A DNA stretch of 36,738 nucleotides from a virus (lineage: Duplodnaviria > Caudoviricetes): positions 1 to 36,738 of the IMG/VR virus record IMGVR_UViG_3300032277_002806; one strand, written 5' to 3'. This document shows positions 4,897 through 36,738 of this stretch, in pieces (the first letter of the stretch is position 1; every line of letters starts with the position of its first letter). A program made the position numbers and the translations under genes. The notes beneath the pieces were generated by a model. The model was not told where the DNA came from, did no database searches, and saw only the letters and a program-made list of their open reading frames with translations.

Positions 4897-5410
4897 CGGC
4901 CCCCACTCCCTCGGGCACCCACTCCGCGCGGAGCCAGAAGACGTCGGAGCACGCCTCGTAGTCCATGCGAGAGGTCCCCTCGCTGTTGATCTCGGTCATC
5001 GCCTCGTCGGTGTAGACGTGGATGCTCCAGGTGTCGCCGTCGCGGATGACGTCCCAGTACCCGCCGGGGAGGATCGACCCGTCGGACGGCTCATACTCGC
5101 TGATGACGCGGTAGTTCTCGCCGGAGAACTCCCAGGTCACGCCGTTGGTGACGCCCTCGCCGGTGATCTCGTGCTCGTCGATGTGGACGGTCCAGATGTA
5201 GACCTCGCCCGTCTCGCTGTCGAAGTAGAGGCAGGCGCGCTCGCCGGCGAACTGCTGACCGCTGTAGGGCAGCCCGGGCCAGGTCTCCTCCGTTGGACTC
5301 CAGGGCCAGTCGTGGAAGGTCGGCTCGGCGGGCGCGGTGTCGGCGACCGCTCCGGAGTCGGCGGGTGCGTCGGAGCTGGTGCAGGCGAGCAGGAAGATCA
5401 GGGCGTACAT
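4889..5410 (-). CDS. Lipoprotein (173 aa), possible superinfection-exclusion factor
   Basis: ATG 5410 gives MYALIFLLAC-TSSDAPADSG: short hydrophobic signal, LLAC lipobox, flexible linker, acidic beta-rich domain. Confidence 0.7.
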   Translation of the reverse strand: MYALIFLLACTSSDAPADSGAVADTAPAEPTFHDWPWSPTEETWPGLPYSGQQFAGERACLYFDSETGEVYIWTVHIDEHEITGEGVTNGVTWEFSGENYRVISEYEPSDGSILPGGYWDVIRDGDTWSIHVYTDEAMTEINSEGTSRMDYEACSDVFWLRAEWVPEGVGADG

Positions 5411-5511
5411 GGCGGGGCCTCGGTGCTGGTTGTGCACCTGCAGACTACCGCCCCCGGGCGTGAGAGATTGCCCGCGCGCTCCTCGAGCTCCGATCGCCGT
5501 CAGACGGGGGC

Positions 5512-7650
5512 TCATCGGCGCCTCCGCATCTGACCGCCCGGCGTGGGGTTGACCGCGTCGTGGAGCGGGCCCGCCATGGCCAGTTCGTCCAGGGTCAGCT
5601 CCTGGTACATGCGGTGGCCGTACACGAGCTGGATCCGCGTCGCGCTCCGACCGGCGCCCCGGCCGCTGTTCAAGTCGCGCACCCCCTCGGGCCCGCCCGC
5701 GTTGGCCACGCCCTGCGGGGTCAGCACGCCTTCGTTCAGCCGGAGTCGGGCGTTGAACTCGTCGCCGGCGCCGCCGCTGTGGTAGCTGGGCGGCTCCTGC
5801 CCGGCGATCTGGGCGACGGCCGCGGCGGTGGAGATCCCCACGCCTGCGGCGAGCACCCCGCCGGCGACAGGCCCGAGCCCGACGGGCGGCGGCTGGAGCG
5901 CCGCCGCCGCAGCGACGATCCCGGAGATCGTGACGTCGGCGATCCCCGCGGCCTGGTGGACGCGGAACGCCCGGCGCGTCGCGGTGTTGGCCTGGCTCAG
6001 TCGCTTCTCCAGCTCCGCGGTCTCGGCGGCGGTCAGCGACTCCTCGCCCGCCTCGAGCTCGGCGCGGAGGTCGCTCGCCCGGGCGGCTCTCCGATCAGCG
6101 GACTGGCTCCACAGGTCGTCCACGCCTTGGAGGGCCAGGGACGCCCCTTGGTGGATGCCCCCCCAGAAGTTCTGGACATACGCCTTCAATTCGCTCAGAG
6201 CTGACTCGATGTGGGCGGTCGCCGAGGCGATGCCTGACTCGATGCTCTTGAGGGTCTGCGTCTGGAGAGAGGTGACGTCGCGTGCGTACCGCGCCTCGAT
6301 AGCGATCCGCGCCTCGGTGGCCTGGACGAGTTGGGCGCTGACGTCGACGCCGGTGGTTTCCAACTTCTGGAGCCGTTCCACCTGCTGATCGATCGCCTGG
6401 GACTGCCGCTCGTAGCCTCGGACCAGTTTTTCGCCCGCGTTCAGCTGGTCCTCGCCTGCGGCGCTGGTGATCCCCTGTAGGCTCACCTGTACCGCAGCGC
6501 GGCGGACGATCGCCTGCTCAAGCGACTTCTCAGCCCGAACGGCCTCGCGGGTAGCGGTCGTGTTCTCGCGGACTACCGGTGTCGCGTCGGCGGTGACCTC
6601 GGCGCCGCGCTGGATGGCCTTGTTGTTGGCCTGGTACGCCTCCATGGCCTCGGTCGCGACGCTGATCCCGTTGATGGTGCCCTGCGTCAGGGTCAGCATG
6701 CTCGAGGCGTAGGTCTTGCCGGCCTTCACGAACTCACCGGCCAGCACCAGCTTGACCACGTCCCCGAAGCCCTTCACCGCCCCCATCATGTCCTTGATGC
6801 GCTGGGTGAAGAACGCGCTGATGAAGACGAAGCCGGCGTTGAAGTCCGCGAGCAGCTCACCGCCGCCGCCGAACAGGTCCGTGAAGGTCGCCAGGGCGCC
6901 CTGCAGGTTCATTTTCAGGTTGGCGATCTCGCGCTGGAACTTCGCGGCGCTGGCGGCGGCCTGTGGCCCGACGCCGACGCCGAACCGCTCGGCCTGGTCC
7001 GTGAAGGCCTCCAGCGGTGTGTCGCCCAGCGCGACGTTCAGGGCGCCGCCGCCCTCCCCGAAGAGCTCTATCGCAGCGGCGGCGCGCTCGGTCGGATCGG
7101 CGATCGCCTGCAGCTTGCCGATCGACTCCTTCAGCACCTCGTCTGTCGAGCGCAGCGAGCCGTCCGCGTTGGTGGCAGCGATCCCCAGGCGCTCGAACGC
7201 GACCAGACTCTCCCCGGTGCCCCGGGCGGTGTCGGCCAGGCGCTTGGGCAGGGTGTTCAAGACCGAGTCCAGAGCGCTCAGCTCCTGCCCTGAGCCCTCG
7301 GCCGCCAGCCGCAGTCCCGCCAGGGTCTCTGGCAGAACACCGCTCTTTGTGGCGGTGTCCACCAGCTCGTTGCGGAGGTCGGCGACCTGAGTCGTCACGT
7401 CCGCGATGGCGGAGGCCGCCTCCTTGGCCACTGAGATCTTGGCGAACGCCTTCCCCCAGGCCATGGCCGACTTCGACGCGGCGCGCTCGGCCGACTTCGC
7501 AGCCTGCGCCTGCGCCTTGGACATCTGGCGCTGGAGGCGCTCAGCGGCCTTCGCCGCCTGCTTGTCGGTGTACCCGGGGATCTTGGCGAACTCGGCCTGG
7601 TACTTCGAGATGTCCGCGAGGACCTGGAGGGAGTAGCTGCGCGTCGCCAT
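5512..7650 (-). CDS. Tail tape measure protein (712 aa)
   Basis: Ala-rich helical sequence; N-terminal LQVLADISKY; typical core (FERLGIAATNADGSLRSTDEVL...AIELFGEGG); C-terminal YHSGG motif; downstream of tail chaperone. Confidence 0.9.
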   Translation of the reverse strand: MATRSYSLQVLADISKYQAEFAKIPGYTDKQAAKAAERLQRQMSKAQAQAAKSAERAASKSAMAWGKAFAKISVAKEAASAIADVTTQVADLRNELVDTATKSGVLPETLAGLRLAAEGSGQELSALDSVLNTLPKRLADTARGTGESLVAFERLGIAATNADGSLRSTDEVLKESIGKLQAIADPTERAAAAIELFGEGGGALNVALGDTPLEAFTDQAERFGVGVGPQAAASAAKFQREIANLKMNLQGALATFTDLFGGGGELLADFNAGFVFISAFFTQRIKDMMGAVKGFGDVVKLVLAGEFVKAGKTYASSMLTLTQGTINGISVATEAMEAYQANNKAIQRGAEVTADATPVVRENTTATREAVRAEKSLEQAIVRRAAVQVSLQGITSAAGEDQLNAGEKLVRGYERQSQAIDQQVERLQKLETTGVDVSAQLVQATEARIAIEARYARDVTSLQTQTLKSIESGIASATAHIESALSELKAYVQNFWGGIHQGASLALQGVDDLWSQSADRRAARASDLRAELEAGEESLTAAETAELEKRLSQANTATRRAFRVHQAAGIADVTISGIVAAAAALQPPPVGLGPVAGGVLAAGVGISTAAAVAQIAGQEPPSYHSGGAGDEFNARLRLNEGVLTPQGVANAGGPEGVRDLNSGRGAGRSATRIQLVYGHRMYQELTLDELAMAGPLHDAVNPTPGGQMRRRR

Positions 7651-19225: not shown

Positions 19226-20035
19226 CTAAGCGTCCTGGGGGTGAAGGTTGGTGGTCGCGAAGAGGGTGGGCTGCGCATCGCGCTCCAAGGCGTCGCCGTC
19301 GAAACGCAAGCTCGGGAGCACGGCATCGACGTAGCGCACCTCTGGCTCGACACAGACGTACCGGCGCGCCTCGGTTGGGGAGAGGCGCTCGATCGCCACC
19401 GCGGCGCGACAGGTGCCGCCGAAGGGCTCCAGGATCAGGTCGCCGGGGCGGGAGCTGGCGCGGAGGATGCGATCCCAGAAGAGCAGCGGCTTCTGGCAGG
19501 GATGGATCGGGCGGCGCCATGTGCAGTCATCGATCTTGTCGCGACCCGGTTCCGCCTCCCGGGTGCGCTCGGTCTGGAAGTTCCTGTGGTTCAGGGGCCA
19601 GATGTTGTTGAGGCCCTGCGGATGGGCAAACGGGGGCCCGCCGCGAGTGTAGACGCCGCAAACCTCTGTGGAATCCGTCCAGGTTTTCGCGTTCCTCCAG
19701 CCGACCATGCTGGCCGTCGGCGTCTTGTCCCAGACGATCAGCCGCCGGAAGGTCCAGCCGTGCGCGAGCAGGAGCGGGTGGAGGGTCGCCCAGCTCTCCG
19801 CGGTGCCCCACAGGTAGACGGAGGCCGACGGAGCGCAGGCGATGCCCCACGCTTCAACGTGGGGCCGATACCACTCCACCAGGTCCTGCCCCGTCGCCTT
19901 GTCCCACTCGCCCTTACCGAGCCCATACGGGCCGTCGGAGAGGACCAGGGAGACGCTGCCGGCGTCGAGGGTCGGGTAGACGTCCTCGGCTGGCGCGATG
20001 TGGATCTGCCCGCGGCGAAGGGTGATCGAGGTCAT
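19226..20035 (-). CDS. DNA N4-C/N6-A methyltransferase, beta class
   Basis: Motif IV variant SDGPY, IVWDK, HPCQKP, SAM-binding LEPFGGT. Confidence 0.9.
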   Translation of the reverse strand: MTSITLRRGQIHIAPAEDVYPTLDAGSVSLVLSDGPYGLGKGEWDKATGQDLVEWYRPHVEAWGIACAPSASVYLWGTAESWATLHPLLLAHGWTFRRLIVWDKTPTASMVGWRNAKTWTDSTEVCGVYTRGGPPFAHPQGLNNIWPLNHRNFQTERTREAEPGRDKIDDCTWRRPIHPCQKPLLFWDRILRASSRPGDLILEPFGGTCRAAVAIERLSPTEARRYVCVEPEVRYVDAVLPSLRFDGDALERDAQPTLFATTNLHPQDA

Positions 20036-22646: not shown

Positions 22647-23233
22647 CAGGCACTCCGCAGGTTCGTGCTGAGCCAGGCGCAGCGCTGGCCGCTCATGCAG
22701 CGGTTGAGCTCCTCGAACGGGATCGCGGCGCTGACTGTCCACCAGTAGTGCCCGCCGCTCCCCTGGCTGCGGGTCGCCTTCGGGTACCACCTGGGGTTCT
22801 GTTTCCAGCGCTCGAAGTTCGCGTGGCAGGCGCGCCGGAGTTCGTCGAAGGGCAGCAGGTAGGCGACCCCGAGCAGGGGGATCGCGTAGACGACGTAGTC
22901 GCAGACCTTGCCGTCATCCAGCGCCCAGCCGATCTGGTGCCAGCGGGTGACCAGACGTCGTTCGGGGTCGAACTCGCAGCGGCTGAACTCCTCGAGCAGC
23001 ACGTCGCGGTAGTCGGTCGAGCGGATCTTCTCGTCGATCCTGAACGCGGGGCCGGACTTCAGGTAGACGATTCGGTCGACCCCTTGGGTCTGGAGAGCGC
23101 AGCGTTCGCTGGGGACGCGCATCGAGGTCAGGTAGTCGGGCCAGATCTGGCGGTAGAGGTCCTCCCAGGCTGCCTCGGAGACAGCGCCGCCCTCCCAGGC
23201 CGCCCGCTCCTGGAAGGAGTAGACGCGGCTCAC
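22646..23233 (-). CDS. PD-(D/E)XK-family nuclease-like protein (195 aa)
   Basis: GTGA-coupled to the methyltransferase; QTQGVDRIVYLKSGPAFRIDEKIR gives D...DEK. Confidence 0.7.
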   Translation of the reverse strand: MSRVYSFQERAAWEGGAVSEAAWEDLYRQIWPDYLTSMRVPSERCALQTQGVDRIVYLKSGPAFRIDEKIRSTDYRDVLLEEFSRCEFDPERRLVTRWHQIGWALDDGKVCDYVVYAIPLLGVAYLLPFDELRRACHANFERWKQNPRWYPKATRSQGSGGHYWWTVSAAIPFEELNRCMSGQRCAWLSTNLRSA

Positions 23234-24834
23234 AGGAGCTCCGGCACAGGCGAGAGGTGCTGCTGTCGTGCCGGTGTCGCGGCCTCCAGCCAGGAGTTGA
23301 CGGCCTCCAGGTAGCGGAGCTCGTCGAGCTCGGCGCCGACGTACTGGCGCTCGGCCGTCCTGCAGGCGCGGGCGAGCGGTGCCCAGCCCGCGTAGAGGTC
23401 GAGCACCCGCCCCCCGACAGGGCAGAAGGTCTCCATCAGCTCGTGGAGCCACCCCACAGGCTTCTCCGAGTGCTGGGTGCGCTTGGAGGCGTGCGCGTTG
23501 GAGGTCGAGCGGATGAGCGGCTTGGGGCTGCCCTTGGTGAACAAGAGCAGGATCTCGCTGTCGCCCCGCCAGTGGTGGCCCGTGCCGAGGCCGCTGGTCT
23601 TCATCCAGGCGCCGCCCGACTTGTAGACCCACCGGAAGCGGTTGGCGTTGGCGACCCGGAAGAAGTCTCGGAGGCGCGGGAAGGTGCACCACATCAGGAG
23701 ATAGGTGTCCTGCTTCGCGCAGTCCCAGGACGCGTCCAGCACGCTCACGATCGTCTCCATGGAGACCGTCTCGTAGTGGTCGGCGGCGCTTCCGTTGAGG
23801 CCCGAGTTGTAGTGCCAGGGGGGATCCGCCTGGACCAGGTCCGCCCCCTCGACCTCGGCGAGCAGGTCCGCGAGGTCTCCGTGGCGCAGGTCGATCTCGG
23901 GCGGGAGCTGGGCGTCGGCCAGGTGCCGGCGCAGGTACTCCAGCCGCTGCTGATCGCGCTCCGCGCGGCGGACAGCCCGCAGCGCCCTCATTTCGCTGGA
24001 GGTCATGGCCGGCTCGGGCTTCTCCTCCTCCAAGGCTGGTACGATCGAGAGGCCGGGCTGGTCGGGGACAGCCTGCTCCCCGTCGACGAACTCGACGGCC
24101 TCCTCCAGCGAGAGCGCGCCGGTCTCGACCTCCTCGACCAGCTCCGGGCTCCCCTCGTCCAGGACGCGCCTGGCTTCCTGGACCTCCTCCTGCGAGACGC
24201 CCAGGGTCTGGGCCACCTTCGCCCGGATCGCCTCGGGGTCGTCCAACTCCGCGGCCTCGCGCAGGCCCTGCTGGATCCGCTCGGACGGGGACGGCGCCGG
24301 CTGGCGGGTCCGCATGTCGTAGACCTGACCGCCCCGCTGGACTCGGCGGCTATCTGCCGTATGCGGCAGATGCGGATAGTCCTCCGCGGCCGACAGCTCC
24401 GCTCGGACTCGGGCGACCATGCCTTCGCTGCGGGGGTGGCCGATCTCTCGGGCGAGCCTGCGATCGGACCACACGGCCCACTCGGGCTGGGCGAGGAGGT
24501 TCTGGATCATGCGGCGCTTGTCGGCGCGGGAGACGGTGGCGACCAGATCGGCGTTGCCCGTGCACGAGATCCGCACGGCCTCGGCCCAGGTCACCTCGTA
24601 GATCACGACGTGGATCTGGTCGCGGCCGGCGCGCTTGTGGGCGGCGTGGCGGTGCCAGCCGTGGGCGAGGTAGAGGACGCCGTCGACGCGCGCCACGTCG
24701 ACCGGGGGGAGCTCGTAGCCGGGCTCAGCGAGCAGCGCCGCCAGGCGCTCGACCTGGGCGTCGTCCAGGACAGCGCGGGCTTGGAGGCGGGGGTCGAGGC
24801 GCAGGGCGTCGGGGTGAAGGCAGGTGGGGATCAT
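23230..24834 (-). CDS. ParB-like N-domain + HTH fused to MT-A70-like N6-adenine methyltransferase (534 aa)
   Basis: LPPVDV...LAHGWHRHAA (ParB/Srx), WSDRRLAREIG (HTH), ADPPW, LLMWCT, HSEKP, VLDLYAG. Confidence 0.85.
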   Translation of the reverse strand: MIPTCLHPDALRLDPRLQARAVLDDAQVERLAALLAEPGYELPPVDVARVDGVLYLAHGWHRHAAHKRAGRDQIHVVIYEVTWAEAVRISCTGNADLVATVSRADKRRMIQNLLAQPEWAVWSDRRLAREIGHPRSEGMVARVRAELSAAEDYPHLPHTADSRRVQRGGQVYDMRTRQPAPSPSERIQQGLREAAELDDPEAIRAKVAQTLGVSQEEVQEARRVLDEGSPELVEEVETGALSLEEAVEFVDGEQAVPDQPGLSIVPALEEEKPEPAMTSSEMRALRAVRRAERDQQRLEYLRRHLADAQLPPEIDLRHGDLADLLAEVEGADLVQADPPWHYNSGLNGSAADHYETVSMETIVSVLDASWDCAKQDTYLLMWCTFPRLRDFFRVANANRFRWVYKSGGAWMKTSGLGTGHHWRGDSEILLLFTKGSPKPLIRSTSNAHASKRTQHSEKPVGWLHELMETFCPVGGRVLDLYAGWAPLARACRTAERQYVGAELDELRYLEAVNSWLEAATPARQQHLSPVPELL

Positions 24835-24853
24835 GTCGTTCTCCTGGGGCGGC

Positions 24854-25267
24854 TCAGGCCGCGCGGTCGCGGGCCAGTTCGGTGTTGAGAAGGGCGACCA
24901 GGGAGCGCAGCTCCTCGCTCGACTCCGCGACCTGGGCATCAGCCTCGGCGCGCTCGTCGGGAGCCAGCGAGGACGCCTTCGCCACGCTGGCCTCGAGCTC
25001 GGCGGCGGCCTCCCGGATCTGGGCGCTCAGCCGCGTCGTGAGAGGAGCGAGCAGCTCCACGCCCTCGCGGAACTTGTCGAGGTGCACGCGCAGGCGGTCC
25101 AGCTTCTCGGAGTACTCGGAGGTCAGCGCCGTCAGGGCCTGGAACTCCGCCGGGGTCAGCGGCTCGCCGCCCTCGACCTTGAGCACGGGCTGGGAGAAGG
25201 GGAGGGAGTTGAGGTCCTCAAGGAGGTGGATCTCGCCGAGGAGGTCGGACAGAGTTGGGGCGGGCAT
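24854..25267 (-). CDS. Coiled-coil hypothetical protein (137 aa)
   Basis: GGAG RBS, amphipathic helical composition. Confidence 0.7.
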   Translation of the reverse strand: MPAPTLSDLLGEIHLLEDLNSLPFSQPVLKVEGGEPLTPAEFQALTALTSEYSEKLDRLRVHLDKFREGVELLAPLTTRLSAQIREAAAELEASVAKASSLAPDERAEADAQVAESSEELRSLVALLNTELARDRAA

Positions 25268-27236: not shown

Positions 27237-27730
27237 ACCCCATCCGCCTCGACCGCCTGTCTGCCCTCCAGCAGCAGGCCCTGGCCACCCTGGCGAACGG
27301 CCCCACCTGGTGCGCCACGGCGTCGGTCGGGCTCCACCCCAGCACGATCAACGCGCTGTACCGCCTGGGCCTGGTCGAGCGCCGCCGAACGACCGGCGCG
27401 CTGGAGGCCAGCCTGACCAGCCTCGGGTCCAACTTCGCGGCCCAGCTCCACGGCGCCCCCTGCGCCCCCTGCGCCGAGCTGGAGCTGGACCTGACGCCCG
27501 CGCAGGAGGAGTTGATCACCCGGCTCCAGAACAGCCGCCCCGGCGCCTGGGTGCCCGCTGACCCCCGCTCCGCTCGCGTCCTGGCCCGGGAGGGTGGAGT
27601 CGCCGTCAGGCCCCGCAGCCCCCAGGACATTGCGACCAGCCCCTACCCCCGCCGTTGGACCGTCGAGGTCCAGCTTCGATTCGTCCGGGTCGCCTTGACG
27701 CGCCCCACCCTCTCCAGGAGAGCAGCATGA
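27233..27730 (+). CDS. Tandem winged-helix-like protein, paralogue B
   Basis: LSALQQQAL...STINALYRLGLV...SLTSLG; GTGA coupling. Confidence 0.65.
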   Translation: MNPIRLDRLSALQQQALATLANGPTWCATASVGLHPSTINALYRLGLVERRRTTGALEASLTSLGSNFAAQLHGAPCAPCAELELDLTPAQEELITRLQNSRPGAWVPADPRSARVLAREGGVAVRPRSPQDIATSPYPRRWTVEVQLRFVRVALTRPTLSRRAA

Positions 27731-28659
27731 GCAGCCTGCCCGATCCCTCCACGACCCTTCGCCGCAACACACCGGGCCACCGCCCCGGCTTCGAAGCCCG
27801 GCCCCTGCGGGACTTCCCGGAGGCACGCGACCCCGACGGGTGGGTCTGGGGACCGTTCGTCACCGTCGACATCGGCCCCAGCCTCCTCGACCTGATCGAG
27901 GGGCTCCAGCTCTGCTGGGCGCTCCAGCGCTCCGGGCGGGTCCGCTGCGCCCTCCCGCTCGTCGGAGGCGACCCCGAGCGCCGGCGCTTCATGGCGCGGG
28001 TGGGCCTCGTCCACCCCGACGCCCACAACGCCCCCACGCCGCTGATCCCGTACTTCGACGACATGGTGGGCCCCTGGGGGCCGCGCGCCCCGGAGCACCC
28101 GCGACTCCTGTGGGCGTGCGCTGTGCTGGGGGTTCCGCTCGACGCGCTGAACGGGCCCCTGCTCACCCGCCCCAACCCGATCCAGGGCCCCTTCTTCGGG
28201 CCGACCGGGGGCTCCCCTCGCGCGCCCCGCGTGCTGGTCGCGCCCGGCGGAGAGAAGGAGCTGCACGCCGCTGCCCACGAGCTCCAAGACATGGGCGCCA
28301 GGATCTACCTGGCCCGCGACGCCCTGCTGCCCCCAGAAGACCGACCGCCCGTGACCCCGCCGGACGCCGCGCTGCTCGCGCTCTTCGGCTTGCTCCGAGA
28401 GGCCGACTTCGTGATCAGCAGCGACGCCGCGCTGACGGCGATCGCCGCGACCTGGGGCACGCCCACCGCGGACTTCTCCGGCGCCCCCTGCGCCTCCTGG
28501 GACGTGGCCGGCGTCGCGCTGGACAGGCTCCGCCCCTTCTTCGCCAGCGAACTGGACCGCTGCGGGTGGACCGACGAGGGGCCCCCCACCGTGGCGGAGT
28601 CCGCCTACTGGGTCTTCCGCACGCCCCTCCGCCCCTCCGCGCCGGAGGCGACGCCGTGA
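27727..28659 (+). CDS. GT9 (heptosyltransferase)-like GT-B fold protein (310 aa), divergent
   Basis: LLREADFVISSDAALTAIAATWGTPT matches the GT9 C-terminal signature, but DSG..H is degenerate. Confidence 0.55.
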   Translation: MSSLPDPSTTLRRNTPGHRPGFEARPLRDFPEARDPDGWVWGPFVTVDIGPSLLDLIEGLQLCWALQRSGRVRCALPLVGGDPERRRFMARVGLVHPDAHNAPTPLIPYFDDMVGPWGPRAPEHPRLLWACAVLGVPLDALNGPLLTRPNPIQGPFFGPTGGSPRAPRVLVAPGGEKELHAAAHELQDMGARIYLARDALLPPEDRPPVTPPDAALLALFGLLREADFVISSDAALTAIAATWGTPTADFSGAPCASWDVAGVALDRLRPFFASELDRCGWTDEGPPTVAESAYWVFRTPLRPSAPEATP

Positions 28660-29012
28660 ACGCCACCACCCACAGCGCCGCCTCGCGCCGGCGCCGTCGC
28701 TCCTACCAGTCCAGCGTCGCCGGGCGGGTGGCTGCCTGCAGCTCTGTCCGCGCCGACTACCTCCGCGACAGCGGCCAGGACGCCCACGCCAGCGCCGACG
28801 ACCTCGAGCAGGCCGCCGCGGCGCTGCGGGAGCTCGACCACCGGCACGCCGCGCTCAGCGCCCTGCTCGTCGAACTCCAGGCCACCCAACCTGACCTCGG
28901 CTCCATTGACCACCCAGGCGCCTGGATCGTGGCGAGGGAGCGCCGGCGCGCGATCGCTGCGCTGGAGTCCCTCGTCGCCCTGGGCACACCTCAACAACGA
29001 GAGCTGACATGA
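28656..29012 (+). CDS. Hypothetical helical protein (118 aa)
   Basis: GGAGG RBS, GTGA overlap. Confidence 0.65.
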   Translation: MNATTHSAASRRRRRSYQSSVAGRVAACSSVRADYLRDSGQDAHASADDLEQAAAALRELDHRHAALSALLVELQATQPDLGSIDHPGAWIVARERRRAIAALESLVALGTPQQRELT

Positions 29013-29257
29013 GACGCAGACAGCAGGAGCGCTCCGCGGAGCGCGAGATAGCGGACAAGATCACAACCATCCGAATCGCTTTGGCAGCGGCTGAGAGTGA
29101 GGCCGCCACCGCAGGCGGCTACGCGCGCCGGGCGCAGATCGAAGCGGAACGCGCCCAGGGCTGCGCCCGTAGGGCTGAGGCGAGCGTCCAGAAGGCGCTG
29201 GAGGCGCTGGAGGCGCTGGAGGCCCTGGGCACGCCCGAGCAGCGGGAGCTGACGTGA
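29009..29257 (+). CDS. Coiled-coil hypothetical protein (82 aa)
   Basis: ATGA overlap; same C-terminal tail as previous gene. Confidence 0.65.
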   Translation: MRRRQQERSAEREIADKITTIRIALAAAESEAATAGGYARRAQIEAERAQGCARRAEASVQKALEALEALEALGTPEQRELT

Positions 29258-29487
29258 GCCGCTCTTCGAAGCCCCGCCGCCCTGGCTCTCGCACCGACCG
29301 TGGGCGCATGACCCTGATCTTCGGGCGCTGGCTCCCCGCAGCCACGTTCAAGGAGCACACGGCCAGCTGCGACCCGCTCGAGCCCGCCAACCCCGACCAC
29401 CAGACCGCCCTCCAGCGCGCCGGCCTCCGAGGTCGCGCCCCGACACCAGGGTCTGCCCTGGCCCGGGCCATGAGCCGGAGCCGCTGA
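29254..29487 (+). CDS. Hypothetical protein (77 aa)
   Basis: GTGA overlap, operon packing. Confidence 0.55.
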   Translation: MSRSSKPRRPGSRTDRGRMTLIFGRWLPAATFKEHTASCDPLEPANPDHQTALQRAGLRGRAPTPGSALARAMSRSR

Positions 29488-29489
29488 CC

Positions 29490-30281
29490 ATGCCCACCGT
29501 CGACGATCTTCTCGCACAGGCCGAGGCCGAGCTGGCCGACACCCTGGGCACCCTCCAGCGCCAGAAGGTCCGCGTGGAGATCCTCCGCGAGGTCGCCGCG
29601 CTGACCTCAGACGCGCCCCCAGCTCCGACGACGGCGCCGCCTGTGGTGTGCCGCCCGCGCCTTGCGGCCCAGCCTGCGGCCCAGGTCGCCGTCCGCTACG
29701 GCGGGTTGAGCCACCAGGTCCACTCCGTGCTCTCCCACCGGGGGCCGCTGCGGGTCAAGACGATCGCCCAGCGCATGGGGCGCCCCTCCAACCAGATCTC
29801 CAAGATCCTCTCCGACGGGCGAATGAAGCTGTTCGAGCGGACCAGCGAGGCGAAGTTCGCCCCCTGGCAGGCGATCCCCGGGGTGCTCTCGCTGCTGCCA
29901 GATCCGACCCCGGAGCCCGTCCCCCAACGCCTCCCCCCCGGCCCGCAGCCGGCGCCGCGGGGCACGTCGCGGCCCATACCCCCCGACGCCCGACCGACGC
30001 CGACAGAGCCGGCAGGGTGGTTCACAGTCCGAGAGGATCCCACCGGGCGCCGGTACCGGCGAACCGGGCTGACCTGGCGGATCCACCGCGTCCTGTTCGC
30101 TGACCCGTTTCCGCTCTCCGCCCGAGACCTCGGGCGCCAGCTCCAGGCGACGACGACCAACGTCCAGACCGCGCTGGAGAACGGCGAGGGGATCTGGTTC
30201 GAGCGAGACGAAGAGCGACAGCGGCTGTGGAAGGCGCTGTTCGTCGAGACCACCCCGGCCCTGTCCCGGAGCACCTCGTGA
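29490..30281 (+). CDS. Coiled coil + two winged-helix repeats (263 aa)
   Basis: GLSHQVHSVL..GPLRVKTIAQRM...LFER...W versus GLTWRIHRVL..PLSARDLGRQL...WFER...W; Pro-rich linkers. Confidence 0.7.
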   Translation: MPTVDDLLAQAEAELADTLGTLQRQKVRVEILREVAALTSDAPPAPTTAPPVVCRPRLAAQPAAQVAVRYGGLSHQVHSVLSHRGPLRVKTIAQRMGRPSNQISKILSDGRMKLFERTSEAKFAPWQAIPGVLSLLPDPTPEPVPQRLPPGPQPAPRGTSRPIPPDARPTPTEPAGWFTVREDPTGRRYRRTGLTWRIHRVLFADPFPLSARDLGRQLQATTTNVQTALENGEGIWFERDEERQRLWKALFVETTPALSRSTS

Positions 30282-30314
30282 ACGCCGCCCAACTCCCCGA
30301 GGAGGACTGAGCCC

Positions 30315-30599
30315 ATGCTGCGTCGTGTAGCCGTCACCGTGGCGATCGCCGTAGCCGTGGGCTGCGCACTGCCCGGGGCCCCCATGGCGGTTCGGCTCGC
30401 CGTCGTTGTGATCCTCGCCGTAGCCGTGGCCGGTGCGCATGCCGTGTTGCTTGCGCTGGAGCCCTTGGAACTACCTGGGTGGCTCGCCGGCGCCCTCGGG
30501 CTCGTCGTGTGCTTCGCCGGGGCTGTCGTCGGCGCCCTCGAGTTGCTCGTCGTCGTGGCGGCTGCGCCTACCGGACCACCATGGGGGCTTGGGATCTGA
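30315..30599 (+). CDS. Small hydrophobic membrane protein (94 aa)
   Basis: GGAGG upstream; about three hydrophobic segments; TGATG overlap with xis. Confidence 0.55.
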   Translation: MLRRVAVTVAIAVAVGCALPGAPMAVRLAVVVILAVAVAGAHAVLLALEPLELPGWLAGALGLVVCFAGAVVGALELLVVVAAAPTGPPWGLGI

Positions 30600-31078
30600 T
30601 GAACCTCGGCGCGCGAGTCGTGGAGCTCCTGGAGCAGATCGTCGCCCAGGTGAACGCCGGCGCCCCGCCGCCGGCGCTCCTGACGCCCCACGCCTGCGAT
30701 CTGTGGCTCGGCCGCCGCCAGGGCTGGACCCGCGAACAGATCCGCGCTGGCACGATCCCCGCCTACGACCTCGGCGGCGCCCGGGGGTATCGTCTGGTGC
30801 CCGCTGAAGTACTCGCTGCCCTCCCGCGGGCTGGAGGTCGCCATGCCCAGGAAGAAGACCGTCTCGATCCGAACCGACCGCCGACGCCTGGACCCGGAGA
30901 CCGGAGCGCCCTACAGAACGCTCCGCTGGACCGATCCGACGACCGGCCAGCGCAGCAGCAAGGCCCTGGGGTATCTGAGCGACCTCGAGGCCGAGGACGC
31001 CGCCGAGGACCAGCGCGCTCGCCTGCGGCTGAATCTCGCCTCCGCGAGTACAGACGTCAGCGGGATCGTGACCGTTGA
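30599..31078 (+). CDS. Excisionase-like (HTH_17/MerR-type) protein; frame runs 236 nt into int
   Basis: LLTPHACDLWLGRRQGWTREQIRAGTIPAYDLGGARGYRL pattern; directly upstream of integrase. Confidence 0.7.
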   Translation: MNLGARVVELLEQIVAQVNAGAPPPALLTPHACDLWLGRRQGWTREQIRAGTIPAYDLGGARGYRLVPAEVLAALPRAGGRHAQEEDRLDPNRPPTPGPGDRSALQNAPLDRSDDRPAQQQGPGVSERPRGRGRRRGPARSPAAESRLREYRRQRDRDR

Positions 31079-32066
31079 CGAACTCGTCGAGCGCTTCATC
31101 GCCGAGGGGCTGCACGGTGGACACGAGCACATCCGCGCCTCCCTGAGCCGTCTCGGCCACCTCGGGCGCCTGCTGGGCGAGACCCGCGTCGATCAGATGA
31201 GCACTGCCGTCCTCCGGCGGTACCAGGCCCAGCGCAAGCGCGAGGTGACCCGCCTCGGCGCTCCGACCGCCTCCTACTCGGTCCACACCGAGGTCAGCCA
31301 GCTCCGCACCGCCTGGCGGTGGGCTCGCCAGGTCGGCCTGGTCACGCAGGAGCCGCCGCCGTCGCCGTCGCGGGCCACGCTGGAGAACGACGCCCGCCCG
31401 CCCCGGTGCCTGACCGAGGGCGAACTCCGCCAGATCCTCGAGCTGGCCCGAGAGCTCTGGGGGGAGGACGCCGCGATGCCTCGCCTCCTGCAGTTCACCG
31501 CCTGGTGCCCCCGGCGCCCGAAGGCGATCGGTGAACTCCGGCGAGAGGACTGCGCGCGGGTGCTCGATCCGGCGCTCCCTCGGGCCAGTCAGCTCGTCTA
31601 CTGGCGGGCGGACAAGGGCGGGGAGGGGAGGGGCTGGGGCCCGATCCCAGAGCCGGCGCGGCGCGCGCTGGTCGCCCAGCTCCAGGCTACCGCGGAGGAC
31701 GCAGCCCCGGACGATCGAGTCTGGACCACGCCGAAGGGCCTGCCCCTGGCGTCGACCCGCTGGGGCAGCTACCGGCAGCGGATCCAGAAGCACCTGGCTG
31801 AGAAGATCGAGGCGGCCCGGGCCGAGGGGCGCACCCCACCAGCGGCGATCCCGAAGTGGACCACCTACGACCTACGGAAGTTCGGCGCCTGGCAGGTCTA
31901 CCAGCGCTGCAACAACCTGCTGATCACCGCCCGCTACACCGGGCACACCGACCCGGCGACGCTGCTCAAGCACTACCTGGCGGCCTGGCCAGGCAGCGCC
32001 GAGGACCTCGCTGAGGCCATTGACTGGACGCCCGAGATCCTCCCGCTCCGAGCTGTGAGCGGGTGA
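30843..32066 (+). CDS. int: Tyrosine integrase (407 aa)
   Basis: Arm-binding-like N-terminus; catalytic set R (CPRRP), K (DKG), YDLRK, TGH, Y (LKHY); GGAGG RBS. Confidence 0.88.
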   Translation: MPRKKTVSIRTDRRRLDPETGAPYRTLRWTDPTTGQRSSKALGYLSDLEAEDAAEDQRARLRLNLASASTDVSGIVTVDELVERFIAEGLHGGHEHIRASLSRLGHLGRLLGETRVDQMSTAVLRRYQAQRKREVTRLGAPTASYSVHTEVSQLRTAWRWARQVGLVTQEPPPSPSRATLENDARPPRCLTEGELRQILELARELWGEDAAMPRLLQFTAWCPRRPKAIGELRREDCARVLDPALPRASQLVYWRADKGGEGRGWGPIPEPARRALVAQLQATAEDAAPDDRVWTTPKGLPLASTRWGSYRQRIQKHLAEKIEAARAEGRTPPAAIPKWTTYDLRKFGAWQVYQRCNNLLITARYTGHTDPATLLKHYLAAWPGSAEDLAEAIDWTPEILPLRAVSG

Positions 32067-32070
32067 TTTT

Positions 32071-32252
32071 TGGGCGCAGATCTGGGCGCAAGCCTCGTAA
32101 CTGTCTGCAATGAGTGGCTATCCCAATTTGATCTTGACCAACTGTTCAACACTCGAAGTTCAATAATTACAGTTGGTTGGATTCTGGTTGGCTCGCTGAA
32201 TCACCCAGAAAACGCCCCTCTCGGCCCCAGCAATGGGCGCAAAGTGGGCGCA
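32071..32252. other. Probable attP
   Basis: AT-rich segment after int flanked by paired TGGGCGCA repeats (32071, 32083; 32234, 32245); central inverted repeat ACCAACTGT (32137) / ACAGTTGGT (32169). Confidence 0.7.
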
Positions 32253-32338
32253 CATGTTTACGGCGCTGTAGACGATATTTGCTCAGCGATCATAGATAGG
32301 CGCCCCACCCAGGCGACTCACACCCTACGATCCAGGGC

Positions 32339-32665
32339 ATGTCCGATCAGCGCCTGACCCTGTACGGCCACCTCGCGCGCCAGCGACGCGACGCGCAGGC
32401 CCACGCCCGAGCGGCGCACGTCCAAGGCCGGGGGGCCGAGGAGGCAATCTGGCAGGCGCTCGCGCTGCGTTGCCTTGAGGAGATGTGGCTGATCGACATG
32501 GTCGAGGGGGCGGAGCCGGCGCCCTGGGATGAAGAGGCGCTGAGGCAGGCCAGGGCCGAGCGGGCGCCGCTGCGCAGCCCGTCGTTGCGGCTCGTCGCCG
32601 CGGTGGCGCTCCTGAGCGCTCTCGGGGGCGCTGCGCTGGCGCTGGCTATCGCTTCCAGCGTCTGA
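32339..32665 (+). CDS. Hypothetical protein with C-terminal transmembrane helix (108 aa)
   Basis: ATG start, hydrophobic C-terminus; lies just beyond attP. Confidence 0.6.
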   Translation: MSDQRLTLYGHLARQRRDAQAHARAAHVQGRGAEEAIWQALALRCLEEMWLIDMVEGAEPAPWDEEALRQARAERAPLRSPSLRLVAAVALLSALGGAALALAIASSV

Positions 32666-32960
32666 ACACCGAGAGCCGTTGTGCGTCGGGCAGGCTGCTC
32701 CAGCGGCTGCCCCAGGCGTCGGACAAAATCGCCTCGAACGCGGGCCGGTCGTCGTCGGTGGCCTCGGTGTTCAGATCGGCCCAGACCTCCGTCAGGGTGC
32801 GCGAGGTCGGGCTGTAGTCCGCGTCAGTGTTCAGGAACGTCTCGTCTATGTTCGCCGAGCCCCGGTGGATGTGGATGCCCAGCGAGAGGCAGGTGAGCGC
32901 GCCGGCGGCGCTCACGCGAATGTGGTCCTCGCGCTCGACGTTGTCTTCAGCTTGTCCCAT
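32646..32960 (-). CDS. Hypothetical protein (104 aa), last gene of late unit
   Basis: 2 nt after previous stop, GAGG RBS. Confidence 0.6.
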   Translation of the reverse strand: MGQAEDNVEREDHIRVSAAGALTCLSLGIHIHRGSANIDETFLNTDADYSPTSRTLTEVWADLNTEATDDDRPAFEAILSDAWGSRWSSLPDAQRLSVFRRWKR

Positions 32961-32962
32961 GG

Positions 32963-33169
32963 TCAGTGATCCTCGGTAGCGTAGAGAGGGGGCGGGGGTG
33001 GACGGCCTTCTACCACTTCGCGCGCGCGCTCGTGCAGCTGACGCGCTCGCGCGACGCCGTCGCGCCCCAGGCGACCGGAGAACGTCGCGCGCTCCGGGCC
33101 CGGGACTCGGCTCTCCAGCGTCAACAGCCCGAGATCCAGAAGCGCTCGGACGCGCGCCCGATCGCTCAT
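32963..33169 (-). CDS. Hypothetical protein (68 aa)
   Basis: ATGA overlap, GAGG RBS. Confidence 0.55.
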   Translation of the reverse strand: MSDRARVRALLDLGLLTLESRVPGPERATFSGRLGRDGVARARQLHERAREVVEGRPPPPPLYATEDH

Positions 33170-33672
33170 GGGGTCGCCTCGCAGCGCCAGGCCTCGACGA
33201 GCGCCACCAGGTCGCCGGCGCTCAGCAGCCCCAGGGCGAGCGCTGCGAACGCCAGCGCGACCAGCGCCCCGCGCCAGGTCGAGACCAGCGCCGCGATCCC
33301 GGTCGCTGCGCGCCAGAACTGTCCGCGCGCCTGGGCGAGTTCGCTGGCGGCGCCGATGTGCACCCGGATGTCCTCGCGGAGATCCGCGAGGCCGCCCGTC
33401 GCCAGCGCAGCAGCCTCGACGATCGACTGCTGCCCCCCCGATTCCAGGAGGAGATCGTAGAGTTGCTCGGCGTCGGCCTGGGCAGACGCGGCGAGTTCCA
33501 GCGCCGCCTGCAGGTCAGCGAGCGCCGGCGGTTCCTGTCGGGCGGCCCGATCGCCAGCGAGCGCGCGCAGCCCCGCGAGCTGCTCGACTCGGGCTCGGGC
33601 GTCGCCTGGTCGGTAGACCTGATCGAGGATTGAGAGAATCCTCGGGGATCCGGTCGCCTCCGCTTCAGTCAC
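33166..33672 (-). CDS. Helical protein with C-terminal transmembrane segment (holin/lysis accessory candidate)
   Basis: Coiled-coil N-part, GALVALAFAALALGLL; lysis-region position. Confidence 0.5.
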   Translation of the reverse strand: MTEAEATGSPRILSILDQVYRPGDARARVEQLAGLRALAGDRAARQEPPALADLQAALELAASAQADAEQLYDLLLESGGQQSIVEAAALATGGLADLREDIRVHIGAASELAQARGQFWRAATGIAALVSTWRGALVALAFAALALGLLSAGDLVALVEAWRCEATP

Positions 33673-34102
33673 GCGGCAACCGGCGGAGCTCGGCGAGCGG
33701 GGCGGTGACTTCGACGGCGATCAGCCACGCCCCGCCGCCGGGGGTCGGCCCCGCCAGCGTCAGGTAGTCGAGGCTCTTGGCGGGCCCGTCGACGGCGCCG
33801 GGGTGGATCCGGGCGCCCTCCCGACCAGCGAGCGCGTCGCGCCAGACCGCCAGCGGCGCGCCCTGCAGGATCTGCCCGAGGTCCTGCCCGAGCAGGGTGC
33901 TCTCGCGAAACGCGGCGTCGCCGATCGCCCCGCCGGCGCAGGCGAGGACGCGCCCGTCGGCGCCGGCGGTCTGGACCCCGATCGGGGCCGACTCCAGGGC
34001 GCTGATCAGCTGCGCGGCGTCGTGCCCTCGGCGGCGCTGGCGGATCTGGTGCTGGAGCCAGGCCAGTGCGAGGCCGAGCGCGAGGCCGAGCAGGTAGTCC
34101 AC
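33665..34102 (-). CDS. Membrane-anchored stand-alone PAS-domain protein (145 aa)
   Basis: N-terminal TM YLLGLALGLALAWL then RQRRR; LESAPIGVQTAGADGRVL...LLGQDLGQIL...DALAG...LIAVEVT follows the PAS consensus. Confidence 0.7.
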   Translation of the reverse strand: MDYLLGLALGLALAWLQHQIRQRRRGHDAAQLISALESAPIGVQTAGADGRVLACAGGAIGDAAFRESTLLGQDLGQILQGAPLAVWRDALAGREGARIHPGAVDGPAKSLDYLTLAGPTPGGGAWLIAVEVTAPLAELRRLPRD

Positions 34103-34419
34103 TACGCCGCCCGGGCCTTGCGGAGGTCGCGGAAGACCATGCCGAACCCGGAGATGATCCGCTGCTCCGCCGCCTCGCCGACGACATCGACGCCCTTCAC
34201 CCGGGCGCGGATGTCGACGTCCGCGGCGATCTGGCGCGCCATCTCGTCGATCTCGGCGTCGGTCGCGTTGATGTCGATGTCGCTGACCTCGTCGTAGATG
34301 GTCGGGAGCTTGCGGAGGATCTGCCCGACGGGGCGAGCGAAGCGCGGGCCATCTTCGGCGAGCTCGGCGAGCAGCTCGACGGCGGGGAGGGTGTAGCGGA
34401 TGAGCTTGCTGATCATCAT
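34102..34419 (-). CDS. Hypothetical protein (105 aa)
   Basis: GGAG RBS before ATG 34419; 1-nt overlap with PAS gene. Confidence 0.65.
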   Translation of the reverse strand: MMISKLIRYTLPAVELLAELAEDGPRFARPVGQILRKLPTIYDEVSDIDINATDAEIDEMARQIAADVDIRARVKGVDVVGEAAEQRIISGFGMVFRDLRKARAA

Positions 34420-34465
34420 GGGGGCTCCAGGTTGTGACCGCGGTTGTCGCGGCGGGGCTATGGGC

Positions 34466-34489
34466 GCCGATCTGGACAACCAGATCGGC
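34466..34489. terminator. Intergenic hairpin GCCGATCTGG-acaa-CCAGATCGGC
   Basis: 10-bp perfect stem 12 nt after the stop at 34502; no U-tract. Confidence 0.45.
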
Positions 34490-34501
34490 AACCCGGGAGG
34501 C

Positions 34502-34753
34502 TCAGACGCGCGGGGGCCAGCGCCAGTCGCCGACGTCAGCCCCCGCGGTGGACGAGGTGATCCAGTCAGGGTGGGCGGGATCGGTCCCGTAGATCGGGAG
34601 CGCGTCGGCGTCGTTGGCGCCGTCGAGGAAGAGGCGCAGGTTGACGCAGTTGTCAGACCAGACGGCGGTGACGATGGCTGGGCGCCAGCGCTCGACGTCC
34701 TCGTACTTGTTGGGGAGGCGGTAGTGGACGATGCGTCCGATGGAGGGCTTCAT
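34502..34753 (-). CDS. Small phage protein of the MKPSIGRIVHY...WxWPPRV type (83 aa)
   Basis: AAGGAG RBS before ATG 34753; recognisable phage motif of unknown function. Confidence 0.8.
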   Translation of the reverse strand: MKPSIGRIVHYRLPNKYEDVERWRPAIVTAVWSDNCVNLRLFLDGANDADALPIYGTDPAHPDWITSSTAGADVGDWRWPPRV

Positions 34754-34771
34754 GGTGGGCTCCTTGTTGGT

Positions 34772-34785
34772 GTTCAGATCTGAAC
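34772..34785. promoter_or_regulatory. Perfect 14-bp palindrome GTTCAGATCTGAAC (copy 2)
   Basis: Intergenic between amidase stop and next RBS; identical to 8888-8901. Confidence 0.55.
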
Positions 34786-34788
34786 GGG

Positions 34789-35436
34789 TCAGGCCGCCAG
34801 GGCGACGACCCGGCGGCGGAGGTTGGCTTCGACGCCGTCGACCAGCGCGACGGCGATCGCCTTGCAGGTGCCGTCGACCTTGCCGGGCGTGAGGAGGTGA
34901 GCGTGGTGGTCGACCGCCAGCGGCTCGAAGCAGACGCCGGCGACGTTCCGGGGGCCGCTGTAGATCCCGTCGATGGTGTGGAAGGCGTTGGCCGTCCACT
35001 CGTCGGGGTGGGCTGCCAGGGCCAGGTGTCGGGGGATGGAGGGCAGGCGCCGCGCGAGGGCGGCCCGGATGTCGTCGCCCAGCTCCGCGCCCAGCCGGCT
35101 CCGGTGGTCGTAGCAGACCAGGCTGTAGTCGCGCCCCGGGGCGACGCTCACCCCGTAGGCGTTCATGTGGCAGGCGACGTAGACGGCCGGCCCCGGGTGG
35201 CGCCTGGCCAGCACGTTCGCGCGCTCGTGGCGCTCGCCGTAGTGGCCCGAGTCGATGACGACGACCCGGACGCCGGCCTCCTCGAGGAGGGCGCGGGCCG
35301 CGCTGATGTAGAGGCCGGTGAAGTAGACCTCCTGCTCGTGGCGCTCGACGGCGCCGTCGTCGTCGATGTCGAAGCCGGCGCCGCGGTCGTCGCGCCCGGG
35401 CTTGCCGTAGTGCTGGCGGTCGAGGATGCAGATCAT
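34789..35436 (-). CDS. Endolysin, N-acetylmuramoyl-L-alanine amidase (Amidase_3)
   Basis: ILDRQHYG, HEQE, ERHERAN, VACHMNA, VCFEP provide the Zn ligands H/E/H and catalytic E. Confidence 0.88.
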   Translation of the reverse strand: MICILDRQHYGKPGRDDRGAGFDIDDDGAVERHEQEVYFTGLYISAARALLEEAGVRVVVIDSGHYGERHERANVLARRHPGPAVYVACHMNAYGVSVAPGRDYSLVCYDHRSRLGAELGDDIRAALARRLPSIPRHLALAAHPDEWTANAFHTIDGIYSGPRNVAGVCFEPLAVDHHAHLLTPGKVDGTCKAIAVALVDGVEANLRRRVVALAA

Positions 35437-35448
35437 GGTCAGGTCCTC

Positions 35449-36123
35449 CTACAGCGCGGGGAGTTCGGCGAGGACGTAGTGGCCCGCGTCGAGGTCGAGG
35501 CCCGTCACCGCGGCGCCGGGGTCGTTGTGCTCACCGAAGGCGACGTAGAAGTCGGCCCCGCTGCTCAGGTCGTACGCGACGTCCTGCTCGGTCGCCTCCA
35601 GGGTCGCGCCGGCGGCGTCGAGGAAGAGGAACGAGACCTGGCTGATGTCGTCGGACCCGTTGATGTGGGCGATGACGCGCACGCGAACACAACCAGCCTC
35701 GGTCGCTGGAGTGCCCGCCGCGGTGCCGGTGTGCGTCTTCCGCTTCCGCGTCCCGCCGTCGTCGACGATCCCGCAGCCGACCGCCCAGGTCCCAGGGCCG
35801 GAGGGGCTCATGAAGCCCACGCCGCACCACACGTCCGCCGGGAGGGTGTTGACGAGGATCTCTCCGATCAGGGCCCGGGCGTCGTCGGCGCTGCTGACCG
35901 TCTCCTTCAGCAGGCCGCACTGGCTGAGCTGCCGGTTCGGGCTGGAGCCGCCGCCGTCGAAGTCGATGACCACGTTCGGGGCGGTGCCCGACAGGTCGTT
36001 GATCGTGACCTCGTTCAGCACCTGGGTGGCGCTGGACTGGTCGAAGTTGGCCCAGGCCGCGGTGCTCGATGTGGCGGGGTTGCTGGTCGTGACGTTGACC
36101 TGGGGCTGGGCGAGGGCGCTCAC
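35449..36123 (-). CDS. Putative tail-associated beta-rich protein (224 aa)
   Basis: GTGA overlap at 36120-36123; last gene before lysin. Confidence 0.6.
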   Translation of the reverse strand: MSALAQPQVNVTTSNPATSSTAAWANFDQSSATQVLNEVTINDLSGTAPNVVIDFDGGGSSPNRQLSQCGLLKETVSSADDARALIGEILVNTLPADVWCGVGFMSPSGPGTWAVGCGIVDDGGTRKRKTHTGTAAGTPATEAGCVRVRVIAHINGSDDISQVSFLFLDAAGATLEATEQDVAYDLSSGADFYVAFGEHNDPGAAVTGLDLDAGHYVLAELPAL

Positions 36124-36530
36124 CGGGACACCCGCCAGCCGGCGGTGATGATGATCTCCACCTCGATCACGTTGTCGGCGTTGCCGCCGTCGACGTTGTG
36201 CTTGAGGTAGAGCTTGCCCTCGGGGGCGTAGTAGGGCGTGCCCAGCGCGCCGAGGTCCGCGGCGCCGGGGTTGAACCGGGCGGCGGCGGCGGCGGCCTCC
36301 AGGACCATGTCGTCGGCCTCGTCGCTCGCGTCGGCGACGCGCCGGAGCTCGGGCTGAACGGTGGTCGATCCAGTGCCGGAGATCAGACTCACCGAGCACT
36401 TGTGGATCCGCCCGCGCTGGGGCAGGCCGGAGATCGTCAGCTCGTCGGCGACGGCCTGCGCGGTCAGGCGCTCGGAGACGAGGTACTCCCCGCCGGAGGG
36501 GGTGGTGGGGGTCGCGGCGGTGTCGGCCAT
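36120..36530 (-). CDS. Putative tail-associated protein (136 aa)
   Basis: GGGAG RBS; beta-rich; follows the junction-spanning tail gene. Confidence 0.6.
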   Translation of the reverse strand: MADTAATPTTPSGGEYLVSERLTAQAVADELTISGLPQRGRIHKCSVSLISGTGSTTVQPELRRVADASDEADDMVLEAAAAAARFNPGAADLGALGTPYYAPEGKLYLKHNVDGGNADNVIEVEIIITAGWRVSR

Positions 36531-36545
36531 GGTGGCTCCCGGGGA

Positions 36546-36611
36546 TCAGGCGACGTCGCGGACGTCGCGGAGGGGTGAAGGGATGAGGATGAAGTCGAAC
36601 AGCAGCGCGCT
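36546..36611 (-). CDS. 3' end of the junction-spanning tail protein (...SALLFDFILIPSPLRDVRDVA*)
   Basis: Same frame as 1590..1 after circularisation; stop at 36546-36548. Confidence 0.85.
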   Translation of the reverse strand, partial: SALLFDFILIPSPLRDVRDVA

Positions 36612-36738
36612 GGCGGTCAGCGCGCGAGGCCGGGCGACGGCCAGGCGGTTCGTCAGGTAGAGCTCGTCGTCCGTCAGCGCGACGAGCGCCCCGGGCTGGA
36701 CCCAGGCGTGCTCGACGCCGCAGCGGTAGGTCAGGACG
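36612..36738 (+). repeat. 127-bp direct terminal repeat, copy 2
   Basis: Identical to 1-127. Confidence 0.97.

Follow-up and report, generated by a model that had tools for sequence, protein, structure and literature searches.

A predicted membrane-anchored PAS protein without an output domain, encoded near the endolysin gene of a temperate tailed phage

Single-pass holin-like lysis proteins are already known, as is phi14:2 gp089 as a PAS protein in GenBank, and it is with such proteins that the subject of this article is compared: a predicted membrane-anchored PAS protein of 145 amino acids (aa) encoded near the amidase gene of virus record IMGVR_UViG_3300032277_002806 (‘the window’ being the whole 36,738-nucleotide (nt) stretch analyzed). 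The nearest described counterpart is LysF1b, found with LysF1a in mycobacteriophages Girr and NBJ. LysF1b has an N-terminal transmembrane domain (TMD) with basic residues after it, a predicted N-out/C-in topology and a length of 92-150 aa; in a cassette with an endolysin that is not of the signal-arrest-release (SAR) type its gene overlaps that of a second membrane protein, and it is needed for timely lysis and has been proposed to be an activator of its partner (PMC13056207). Phage T4 provides another single-pass lysis protein with a globular domain regulating timing, holin T with its antiholins RI and RIII (PMC11413866), and the class III holin topology is one TMD, N-in/C-out, with a periplasmic globular domain (PMC3556154). 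Among receptors, the membrane-proximal PAS domain of DcuS forms dimers, keeps the kinase silent and interacts with a partner in the membrane (PMC3892338).

The window protein is like LysF1b in having a predicted single N-terminal TMD (with a short core), basic residues after it, a size within the 92-150 aa range and a gene overlap with a second membrane gene; its N-out/C-in topology is predicted by charge bias only (no Lys or Arg before the helix, four after). It differs in having no match to DUF2746 and in that its gene is upstream of its membrane neighbor. With T4 holin T no sequence, Pfam or PHROG match was found, and T-type holins are among the weak structural matches of the window protein (E 0.036-0.18); T is N-in with a periplasmic domain, whereas the charge bias here predicts the reverse of the class III arrangement. 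The globular domain of T is probably GAF-like. The likeness to CitA and DcuS is a PAS domain directly under a TM helix, that of CitA being the best structural match (PDB 5fq1); the window protein is without periplasmic sensor and without kinase, the identity is 14%, and a shared fold shows no function.

The gene, its predicted fold and its anchor

The gene and its parts are as follows:

33665..34102, minus strand: 145-aa TM-PAS protein, predicted, without output domain (frame GC pattern, AlphaFold2, Foldseek, VIA-align)
34043..34096, minus strand: N-terminal uncharged helix, residues 3-20, predicted TM, with three G/A-xxx-G/A motifs (hydropathy)
34022..34042, minus strand: basic patch, residues 21-27, predicting N-out with the PAS domain cytoplasmic (topology by charge bias)
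33704..33988, minus strand: predicted PAS core, residues 39-133, with an E-V-T junction at its end (homologue alignment, AlphaFold2, VIA-align)

The stretch 33665-34102 is a real gene. Its GC contents at codon positions 1, 2 and 3 are 0.82, 0.55 and 0.95, its neighbors being alike, and this is the only frame with the coding GC pattern of the genome; four of the other five frames have stops and the fifth is the plus-strand mirror. An earlier reading of the window, made from the letters and an open reading frame (ORF) list and here called the sequence-only reading, had taken it as a gene translationally coupled to both neighbors, and overlaps are present on both sides: the GTG start overlaps the stop of an upstream 105-aa gene by 1 nt (TAGTG), and the overlap with a downstream 168-aa gene is 8 nt. 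Since no clear ribosome-binding site precedes the overlapping start, translation of the PAS gene is likely coupled. The coupling had been confined to the 105-aa gene and a downstream coiled-coil/TM gene; the overlaps and the TM segment stand, the coiled coil is weakly indicated (rough heptad contrast 2.9) and the chain extends to a 68-aa gene, which overlaps the 168-aa gene by 4 nt, and to a 104-aa gene.

A PAS fold is strongly predicted by modeling. In an AlphaFold2 model from a three-row alignment (predicted local distance difference test score, pLDDT, 73.9, core blocks near 90) strands and helices follow the order A-B-C-D-E-F-G-H-I with the five-stranded antiparallel sheet of the PAS superfamily. 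Foldseek returned 117 PDB chains at E<=0.001, with 35/35 of the matches listed being PAS. The top VIA-align match is the cytoplasmic PAS of CitA mentioned above (Z 10.7, root-mean-square deviation 3.6, 102 residues aligned), next to which ThkA and RHA05790 tie at Z 9.9, and all 50 matches listed contain PAS. The ESM Atlas feature score to PAS clusters is 0.96 and there is a profile match to the FixL PAS (E 2e-4). The PAS-like domain proposed from the letters is well borne out by these comparisons. A model from the single sequence was poor (pLDDT 52) and the fold search from it uninformative (best Z 3.8). By Pfam scores alone the protein would not be placed in a PAS family: it has no Pfam match (none at E<=1), nor a PHROG or NCBIfam one, and the weak PAS matches of its homologues (PAS_4, E 1.6e-4; PAS, E 2.2e-3) are below the cut-off, one homologue being named ‘PAS domain-containing protein’ at source.

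Those homologues are few. A search of 1.84 billion protein representatives gave four at E<=0.001, namely the protein itself, P0016, P0017 and P0018. P0016 (E 2e-14) was dropped as a 571-aa repeat protein, which leaves as true homologues P0017, of 158 aa, and P0018, of 167 aa, both ~34% identical to the window protein. A word-index search (lengths 79-293) found the PAS protein itself only and, with the three-row alignment, the same three proteins, fused forms of greater length being covered by the search of the representatives; there were no related loci in the viral contigs, cultured phages or metagenomes searched, where one metagenome search gave back just the contig itself (L043).

That no output domain is present, as had been claimed, is confirmed. 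The protein stops after one short helix past PAS, and the output-less architecture is kept in 2/2 homologues, all three proteins ending shortly past an E-x-T junction. No H-box or GGDEF motif occurs in the six frames of the whole genome, in which the family scans also found no kinase or cyclase.

A single TM anchor with N-out/C-in topology is predicted with moderate confidence. One Asp and no Lys or Arg come before the helix and four Arg lie within 15 residues after it, which by the positive-inside rule would place the PAS domain in the cytoplasm, the call being made from charge bias. The basic stop-transfer patch of the sequence-only reading is thus present in these four Arg, and its one N-terminal TM helix is moderately supported, by an uncharged run of residues 3-20 with a short core. 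The TM segments are stronger in P0017 and P0018 (Kyte-Doolittle hydropathy, KD17, 2.7).

PAS proteins near lysins of cultured phages

Among viral proteins, structure comparison ranks highest some short ‘PAS domain’ proteins from uncultured phages, together with a pair from Cellulophaga phages, assigned by organism and protein length to phi19:1 gp108 and phi18:3 gp090. From these proteins tblastn led to seven lineages, phi14:2 being chosen for its context:

phi14:2 gp089: annotated ‘PAS domain-containing protein’; overlaps a GH19 lysin gene
MA9V-2 gp249: within two genes of a GH108 lysin
phi18:3 gp090: within two genes of a GH108 lysin
phi38:2 gp11: overlaps an M15 peptidase gene
Ingeline_1 gp36: two genes from a DUF5675 protein, a putative lysin
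phi19:1 gp108: five genes from a lysozyme; overlaps a gene with a weak holin match (E 0.049)
Brevundimonas phage Kikimora (L049, 3453-4368): soluble PAS protein, its gene in 8-nt overlap with that of a coiled-coil protein whose C-terminus is a hydrophobic tail; beside a tRNA cluster

In 4/7 lineages the PAS gene is no more than two genes from that of a Pfam-recognized endolysin, and three lysin classes are involved. Pfam PAS matches were confined to phi14:2, MA9V-2 and Kikimora, and the N-terminus of the phi14:2 protein matches PHROG 2658 ‘hol-like chemotaxis’ (E 1e-3). The proteins of the seven lineages are related to each other and so are not seven independent events. Those of the Bacteroidota phages are alike to the window protein in combining a membrane segment with a PAS or PAS-like domain, in having no output domain and in being near lysins; they differ by a coiled-coil spacer and in showing no detectable homology to it, and what is known of them is annotation only. 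They show the architecture recurring at lysins of three enzyme classes, which is not direct evidence on the window gene, and the window protein is likely a lineage independent of the cultured family. The Kikimora overlap of a PAS gene with one for a coiled-coil protein with a hydrophobic tail is the same pairing as in the window; compared by BLAST, the 168-aa protein and the Kikimora coiled-coil/TM protein did not align. The synteny of such genes with lysins, which the sequence-only reading had named among its checks, is seen in 4/7 lineages of the cultured family, and a PAS_4 match in 0/36 of the virus records that carry an amidase related to that of the window.

When uncultured members of this PAS family were sought, the scans gave phi14:2 itself, or six loci that are all near copies of cultured phages; a match in L046 was rejected as false, being inside a 630-aa ORF. 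Full-text literature searches, with subscription journals largely outside them, turned up no paper that describes a PAS protein as part of a lysis cassette. Four Cellulophaga phage proteins, all annotated hypothetical (L042 9103-9621, L048 2911-3546, L047 2935-3537 and L041 6203-6925), have a basic N-terminus before a short hydrophobic segment and, from that sequence, may have the opposite, T4-T-like topology.

A possible part in lysis, and other readings

The PAS gene is near the end of the late strand, in the following order:

34789..35436, minus strand: 215-aa N-acetylmuramoyl-L-alanine amidase, an Amidase_3-like endolysin (family profile; Pfam E 0.006, below cut-off)
34502..34753, minus strand: 83-aa protein of PHROG 2293, function unassigned in PHROG (E 4.5e-13)
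34420..34501, minus strand: 82-nt structured spacer ahead of the 105-aa gene, with two hairpins (34466-34489, 34437-34453) and no U-tract
34102..34419, minus strand: 105-aa amphipathic protein, no TM, first of the coupled chain, no family (hydropathy, family scans)
33665..34102, minus strand: the PAS gene
33166..33672, minus strand: 168-aa helical protein, no family, holin or partner candidate (hydropathy, family scans)
32963..33169, minus strand: 68-aa ORF, in overlap with the 168-aa gene, no family (ORF list, overlaps)
32646..32960, minus strand: 104-aa ORF, final late-strand gene, no family (family scans)

The genes had been described as all following the amidase; the order is right, with the 83-aa gene and the spacer intervening before the 105-aa gene. 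A family profile of the amidase (14 sequences) matches PlyPSA (1xov, E 4.8e-8), and H9, E36 and H90 are invariant in 14/14, E171 nearly so, which together fit the Amidase_3 fold and the His-Glu-His-Glu zinc/catalytic set of that family. No export signal or SAR segment was found in the enzyme. An endolysin without a signal needs a membrane lesion to escape, and a holin is therefore required. The region has no holin family match (Pfam, PHROG, NCBIfam), and a genome-wide lipobox scan with a simple pattern gave one match, inside 4889-5515, and none in the cassette, so that no outer-membrane spanin (o-spanin) ORF is recognized there and a spanin pair is rejected; the earlier statement that neither a holin nor a spanin pair is recognizable stands. 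In a genome-wide hydropathy scan the late strand offered no small TM proteins besides the PAS and 168-aa proteins. The 168-aa protein has an acidic N-terminal 120 residues, a clear C-terminal TM segment at 135-153 (KD 2.1) and a weaker one at 120-133; its best ESM Atlas score, 0.80, is at chance level.

At least one small TM gene is nearby in 32/37 loci with a related amidase, in many unrelated clusters, and the amidase-side slot is therefore a lysis cassette with exchangeable membrane genes. None of the profiles built from neighbor clusters at the 37 loci credibly matched any of the six genes downstream of the amidase in the window (best 8 bits). As a separate observation, the amidase is followed in many relatives (L001-L008, L014 and L022) by a conserved TM protein whose C-terminal domain is rich in Cys (a cluster of 10) and a two-helix small membrane protein (a cluster of 9), both lysis candidates.

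Our best reading, at somewhat less than an even chance, is that the PAS protein is a holin-like, LysF1b-like single-pass timing component of this cassette. It is favored because the amidase is without an export signal, because the PAS and 168-aa proteins are the only small TM proteins of their strand and because an unrelated PAS family is found at lysins in cultured phages; by analogy the protein likely works like one of LysF1b type. Known controls of lysis time are holin concentration, membrane energy and, in T4, superinfection sensed in the periplasm. Here the PAS, 105-aa and 168-aa proteins would be expressed late in a fixed ratio through translational coupling, and the PAS protein would accumulate in the inner membrane, where its PAS domain, occupying the place of the charged cytoplasmic helix of LysF1b-type proteins, may dimerise or bind the 168-aa protein at its helical cytoplasmic portion. 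Such contacts would either keep the helices in the membrane from acting or draw them together, thus controlling clustering, and clustering would set the moment at which the signal-less amidase escapes; the switch might be concentration alone or a ligand. If this is true, a cytoplasmic PAS domain on a holin-like protein would link the physiology of the host to burst time. The architecture is shared by phages that are unrelated and whose lysins differ in chemistry, and as several of these were cultured on Cellulophaga, a marine bacterium, the question is testable now. Even were PAS a dimerisation module only, this would be a type of single-pass lysis protein not previously described and would help to track down holins that are missing from uncultured phages.

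Several points weigh against a lysis role. The strongly hydrophobic core of the putative anchor is ~14 residues within its uncharged run (maximum KD17 1.45-1.54). The tail of LysF1b, as depicted in PMC13056207, is helical and extended with 30-50% DEKRH, whereas the window counterpart is a predicted globular PAS domain with 22% charged residues, and since it has neither a charged helical tail nor DUF2746 the protein is not filed as a LysF1b member. It and the cultured family are not detectably homologous (hhalign probability 0.1%), so support from that family is by analogy only, and the Kikimora PAS gene has no annotated lysin within 3.5 kb. The homologues are on contigs of 1391 and 1056 bases and the lysin linkage of the window family rests on one genome. 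No PAS_4 match was found in any of the 36 virus records with a related amidase (11 of them >=90% complete), by a profile that misses the window protein too, so that divergent copies could escape it, and homologues of the PAS, 105-aa and 168-aa genes are absent from all 37 amidase loci; the PAS gene consequently does not belong to the core of the cassette that goes with this lysin. The genes are at the end of the late strand behind a hairpin spacer, and the end of a late strand is a usual place for cargo genes. Finally, a 94-aa ORF at 30315-30599 on the plus strand, with three hydrophobic segments and no family, in the early region before the integrase, is a candidate for an alternative holin, an exclusion protein or a shadow ORF.

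Is the gene, then, a passenger? It might be a captured host receptor fragment riding in the late operon without a lysis role, or might have another role at the envelope such as superinfection exclusion. We think this improbable but not remote: the absence of the gene from 36/36 amidase-relative records, the near-singleton family and a place at the end of the operon, with two further orphan genes after it, speak for it, whereas a codon pattern matching that of the phage (GC3 0.95), overlaps on both sides and the same truncated architecture in two distant homologues, which argues for selection, do not.

Within the lysis-timing reading there is the narrower proposal of a true sensor gate, in which the PAS pocket would bind a cofactor or small molecule as a readout of the energy, oxygen or redox state of the host and so shift the lysis time; as a part of that reading, not an addition to it, we consider ligand sensing unlikely. 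It has in its favor the fold itself, W87 and H100, both invariant in 3/3 homologues (among 20 such columns, which include E95, E131 and T133), and the seeming recruitment of PAS to lysis cassettes more than once. H100, placed in the canonical PAS register, would presumably point into the pocket, and the invariance of the two residues is a lead only, three sequences being too few to define a pocket. Against it, the known cofactor sites are not seen. The flavin motif of LOV photoreceptors, NCRFLQ, was not found in the protein; heme PAS domains of FixL type have their proximal His in the F-alpha helix, here 81-91, and the only His are at 18, 27 and 100, so both site types are rejected, and P0017 does not share the single Cys. 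Moreover, membrane-proximal PAS domains can be pure relays (PMC3892338). Of the sensor-gated lysis-timing module of the sequence-only reading, the fold, the anchor, the lack of output and the placement have survived, with a lysis role as the best reading; ‘sensor-gated’ has gained no direct support, there being no known cofactor motif, a closest structure that is the relay PAS of CitA, and amidase relatives without the gene. That phages repeatedly and independently grafted PAS onto holin-like proteins, as lysis clocks reading host redox, oxygen or a metabolite, with the window gene separate from the Bacteroidota-phage family, is a broader reading and similarly unlikely.

A little less probable again is a dominant-negative decoy, the kinase-less TM-PAS copy forming heterodimers with a host histidine kinase or cyclase and damping signaling late or in lysogeny, with its position in the cassette incidental. 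The protein does keep the front part of a receptor (TM segment, N-cap helix, PAS, E-V-T junction and short helix), P0017 has a weak PhoR match (E 0.036), and the best structure is the membrane-proximal PAS of CitA, whose DcuS equivalent, in the account already cited, dimerises and silences the kinase (PMC3892338). A decoy, however, should resemble its target, and no close host receptor was found, the 1.84 billion representatives yielding only the two short true matches; the PAS gene is also tightly coupled, on the late strand, with a membrane gene of the phage, which argues against it. A split or frameshifted sensor kinase or cyclase, be it assembly artefact or pseudogene, which the overlap with a helical downstream gene could mimic, is rejected as exceedingly improbable, given that there is no output motif in any frame of the genome, that the homologues likewise stop after PAS, that the 168-aa protein ends in a TM helix without a kinase match and that a second contig record (L043), which may come from the same data, is identical over 27668-36738.

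The spacer and the phage genome

The spacer ahead of the 105-aa gene is unusually stable (folding z -3.08, with 0/200 shuffles as stable), its hairpins are GC-rich and their loops, UUGU and ACAAC, are complementary. In the fold of lowest energy the ribosome-binding region of the 105-aa gene is partly base-paired, and the hairpins could set the translation level of the whole coupled chain; no minus-strand terminator is listed, and a promoter scan was empty.

The window is one complete-looking contig of 71% G+C, classed as a virus record. Family scans called terminase, tape measure, capsid protein, DNA methyltransferases, replication initiator and integrase, a set (terminase, tape measure, capsid and integrase) that indicates a temperate tailed phage. 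A direct terminal repeat of 127 nt, at positions 1-127 and 36612-36738, with a tail gene spanning the junction, points to a circular assembly of 36.6 kb, across whose junction the minus-strand late genes run. A sequencing-run search for the phage sequence gave one DNA run, possibly its source, with no RNA run listed. The one genome match of the amidase family is a 3.9-kb contig in a Gemmatimonadota bin, too weak for a host call and not used.

Downstream of the integrase and convergent to the late strand is a 108-aa ORF (32339-32665, plus strand) with a C-terminal TM helix. There are two DNA methyltransferase genes, at 19226-20035 and 23230-24939 on the minus strand, one of them fused to a ParB-like domain. 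The lipobox match noted above is in a lipoprotein-like ORF within 4889-5515 (minus strand), between the tape measure and a large tail gene, where a hydrophobic stretch leads up to Cys from an internal Met; it hints at a diderm host.

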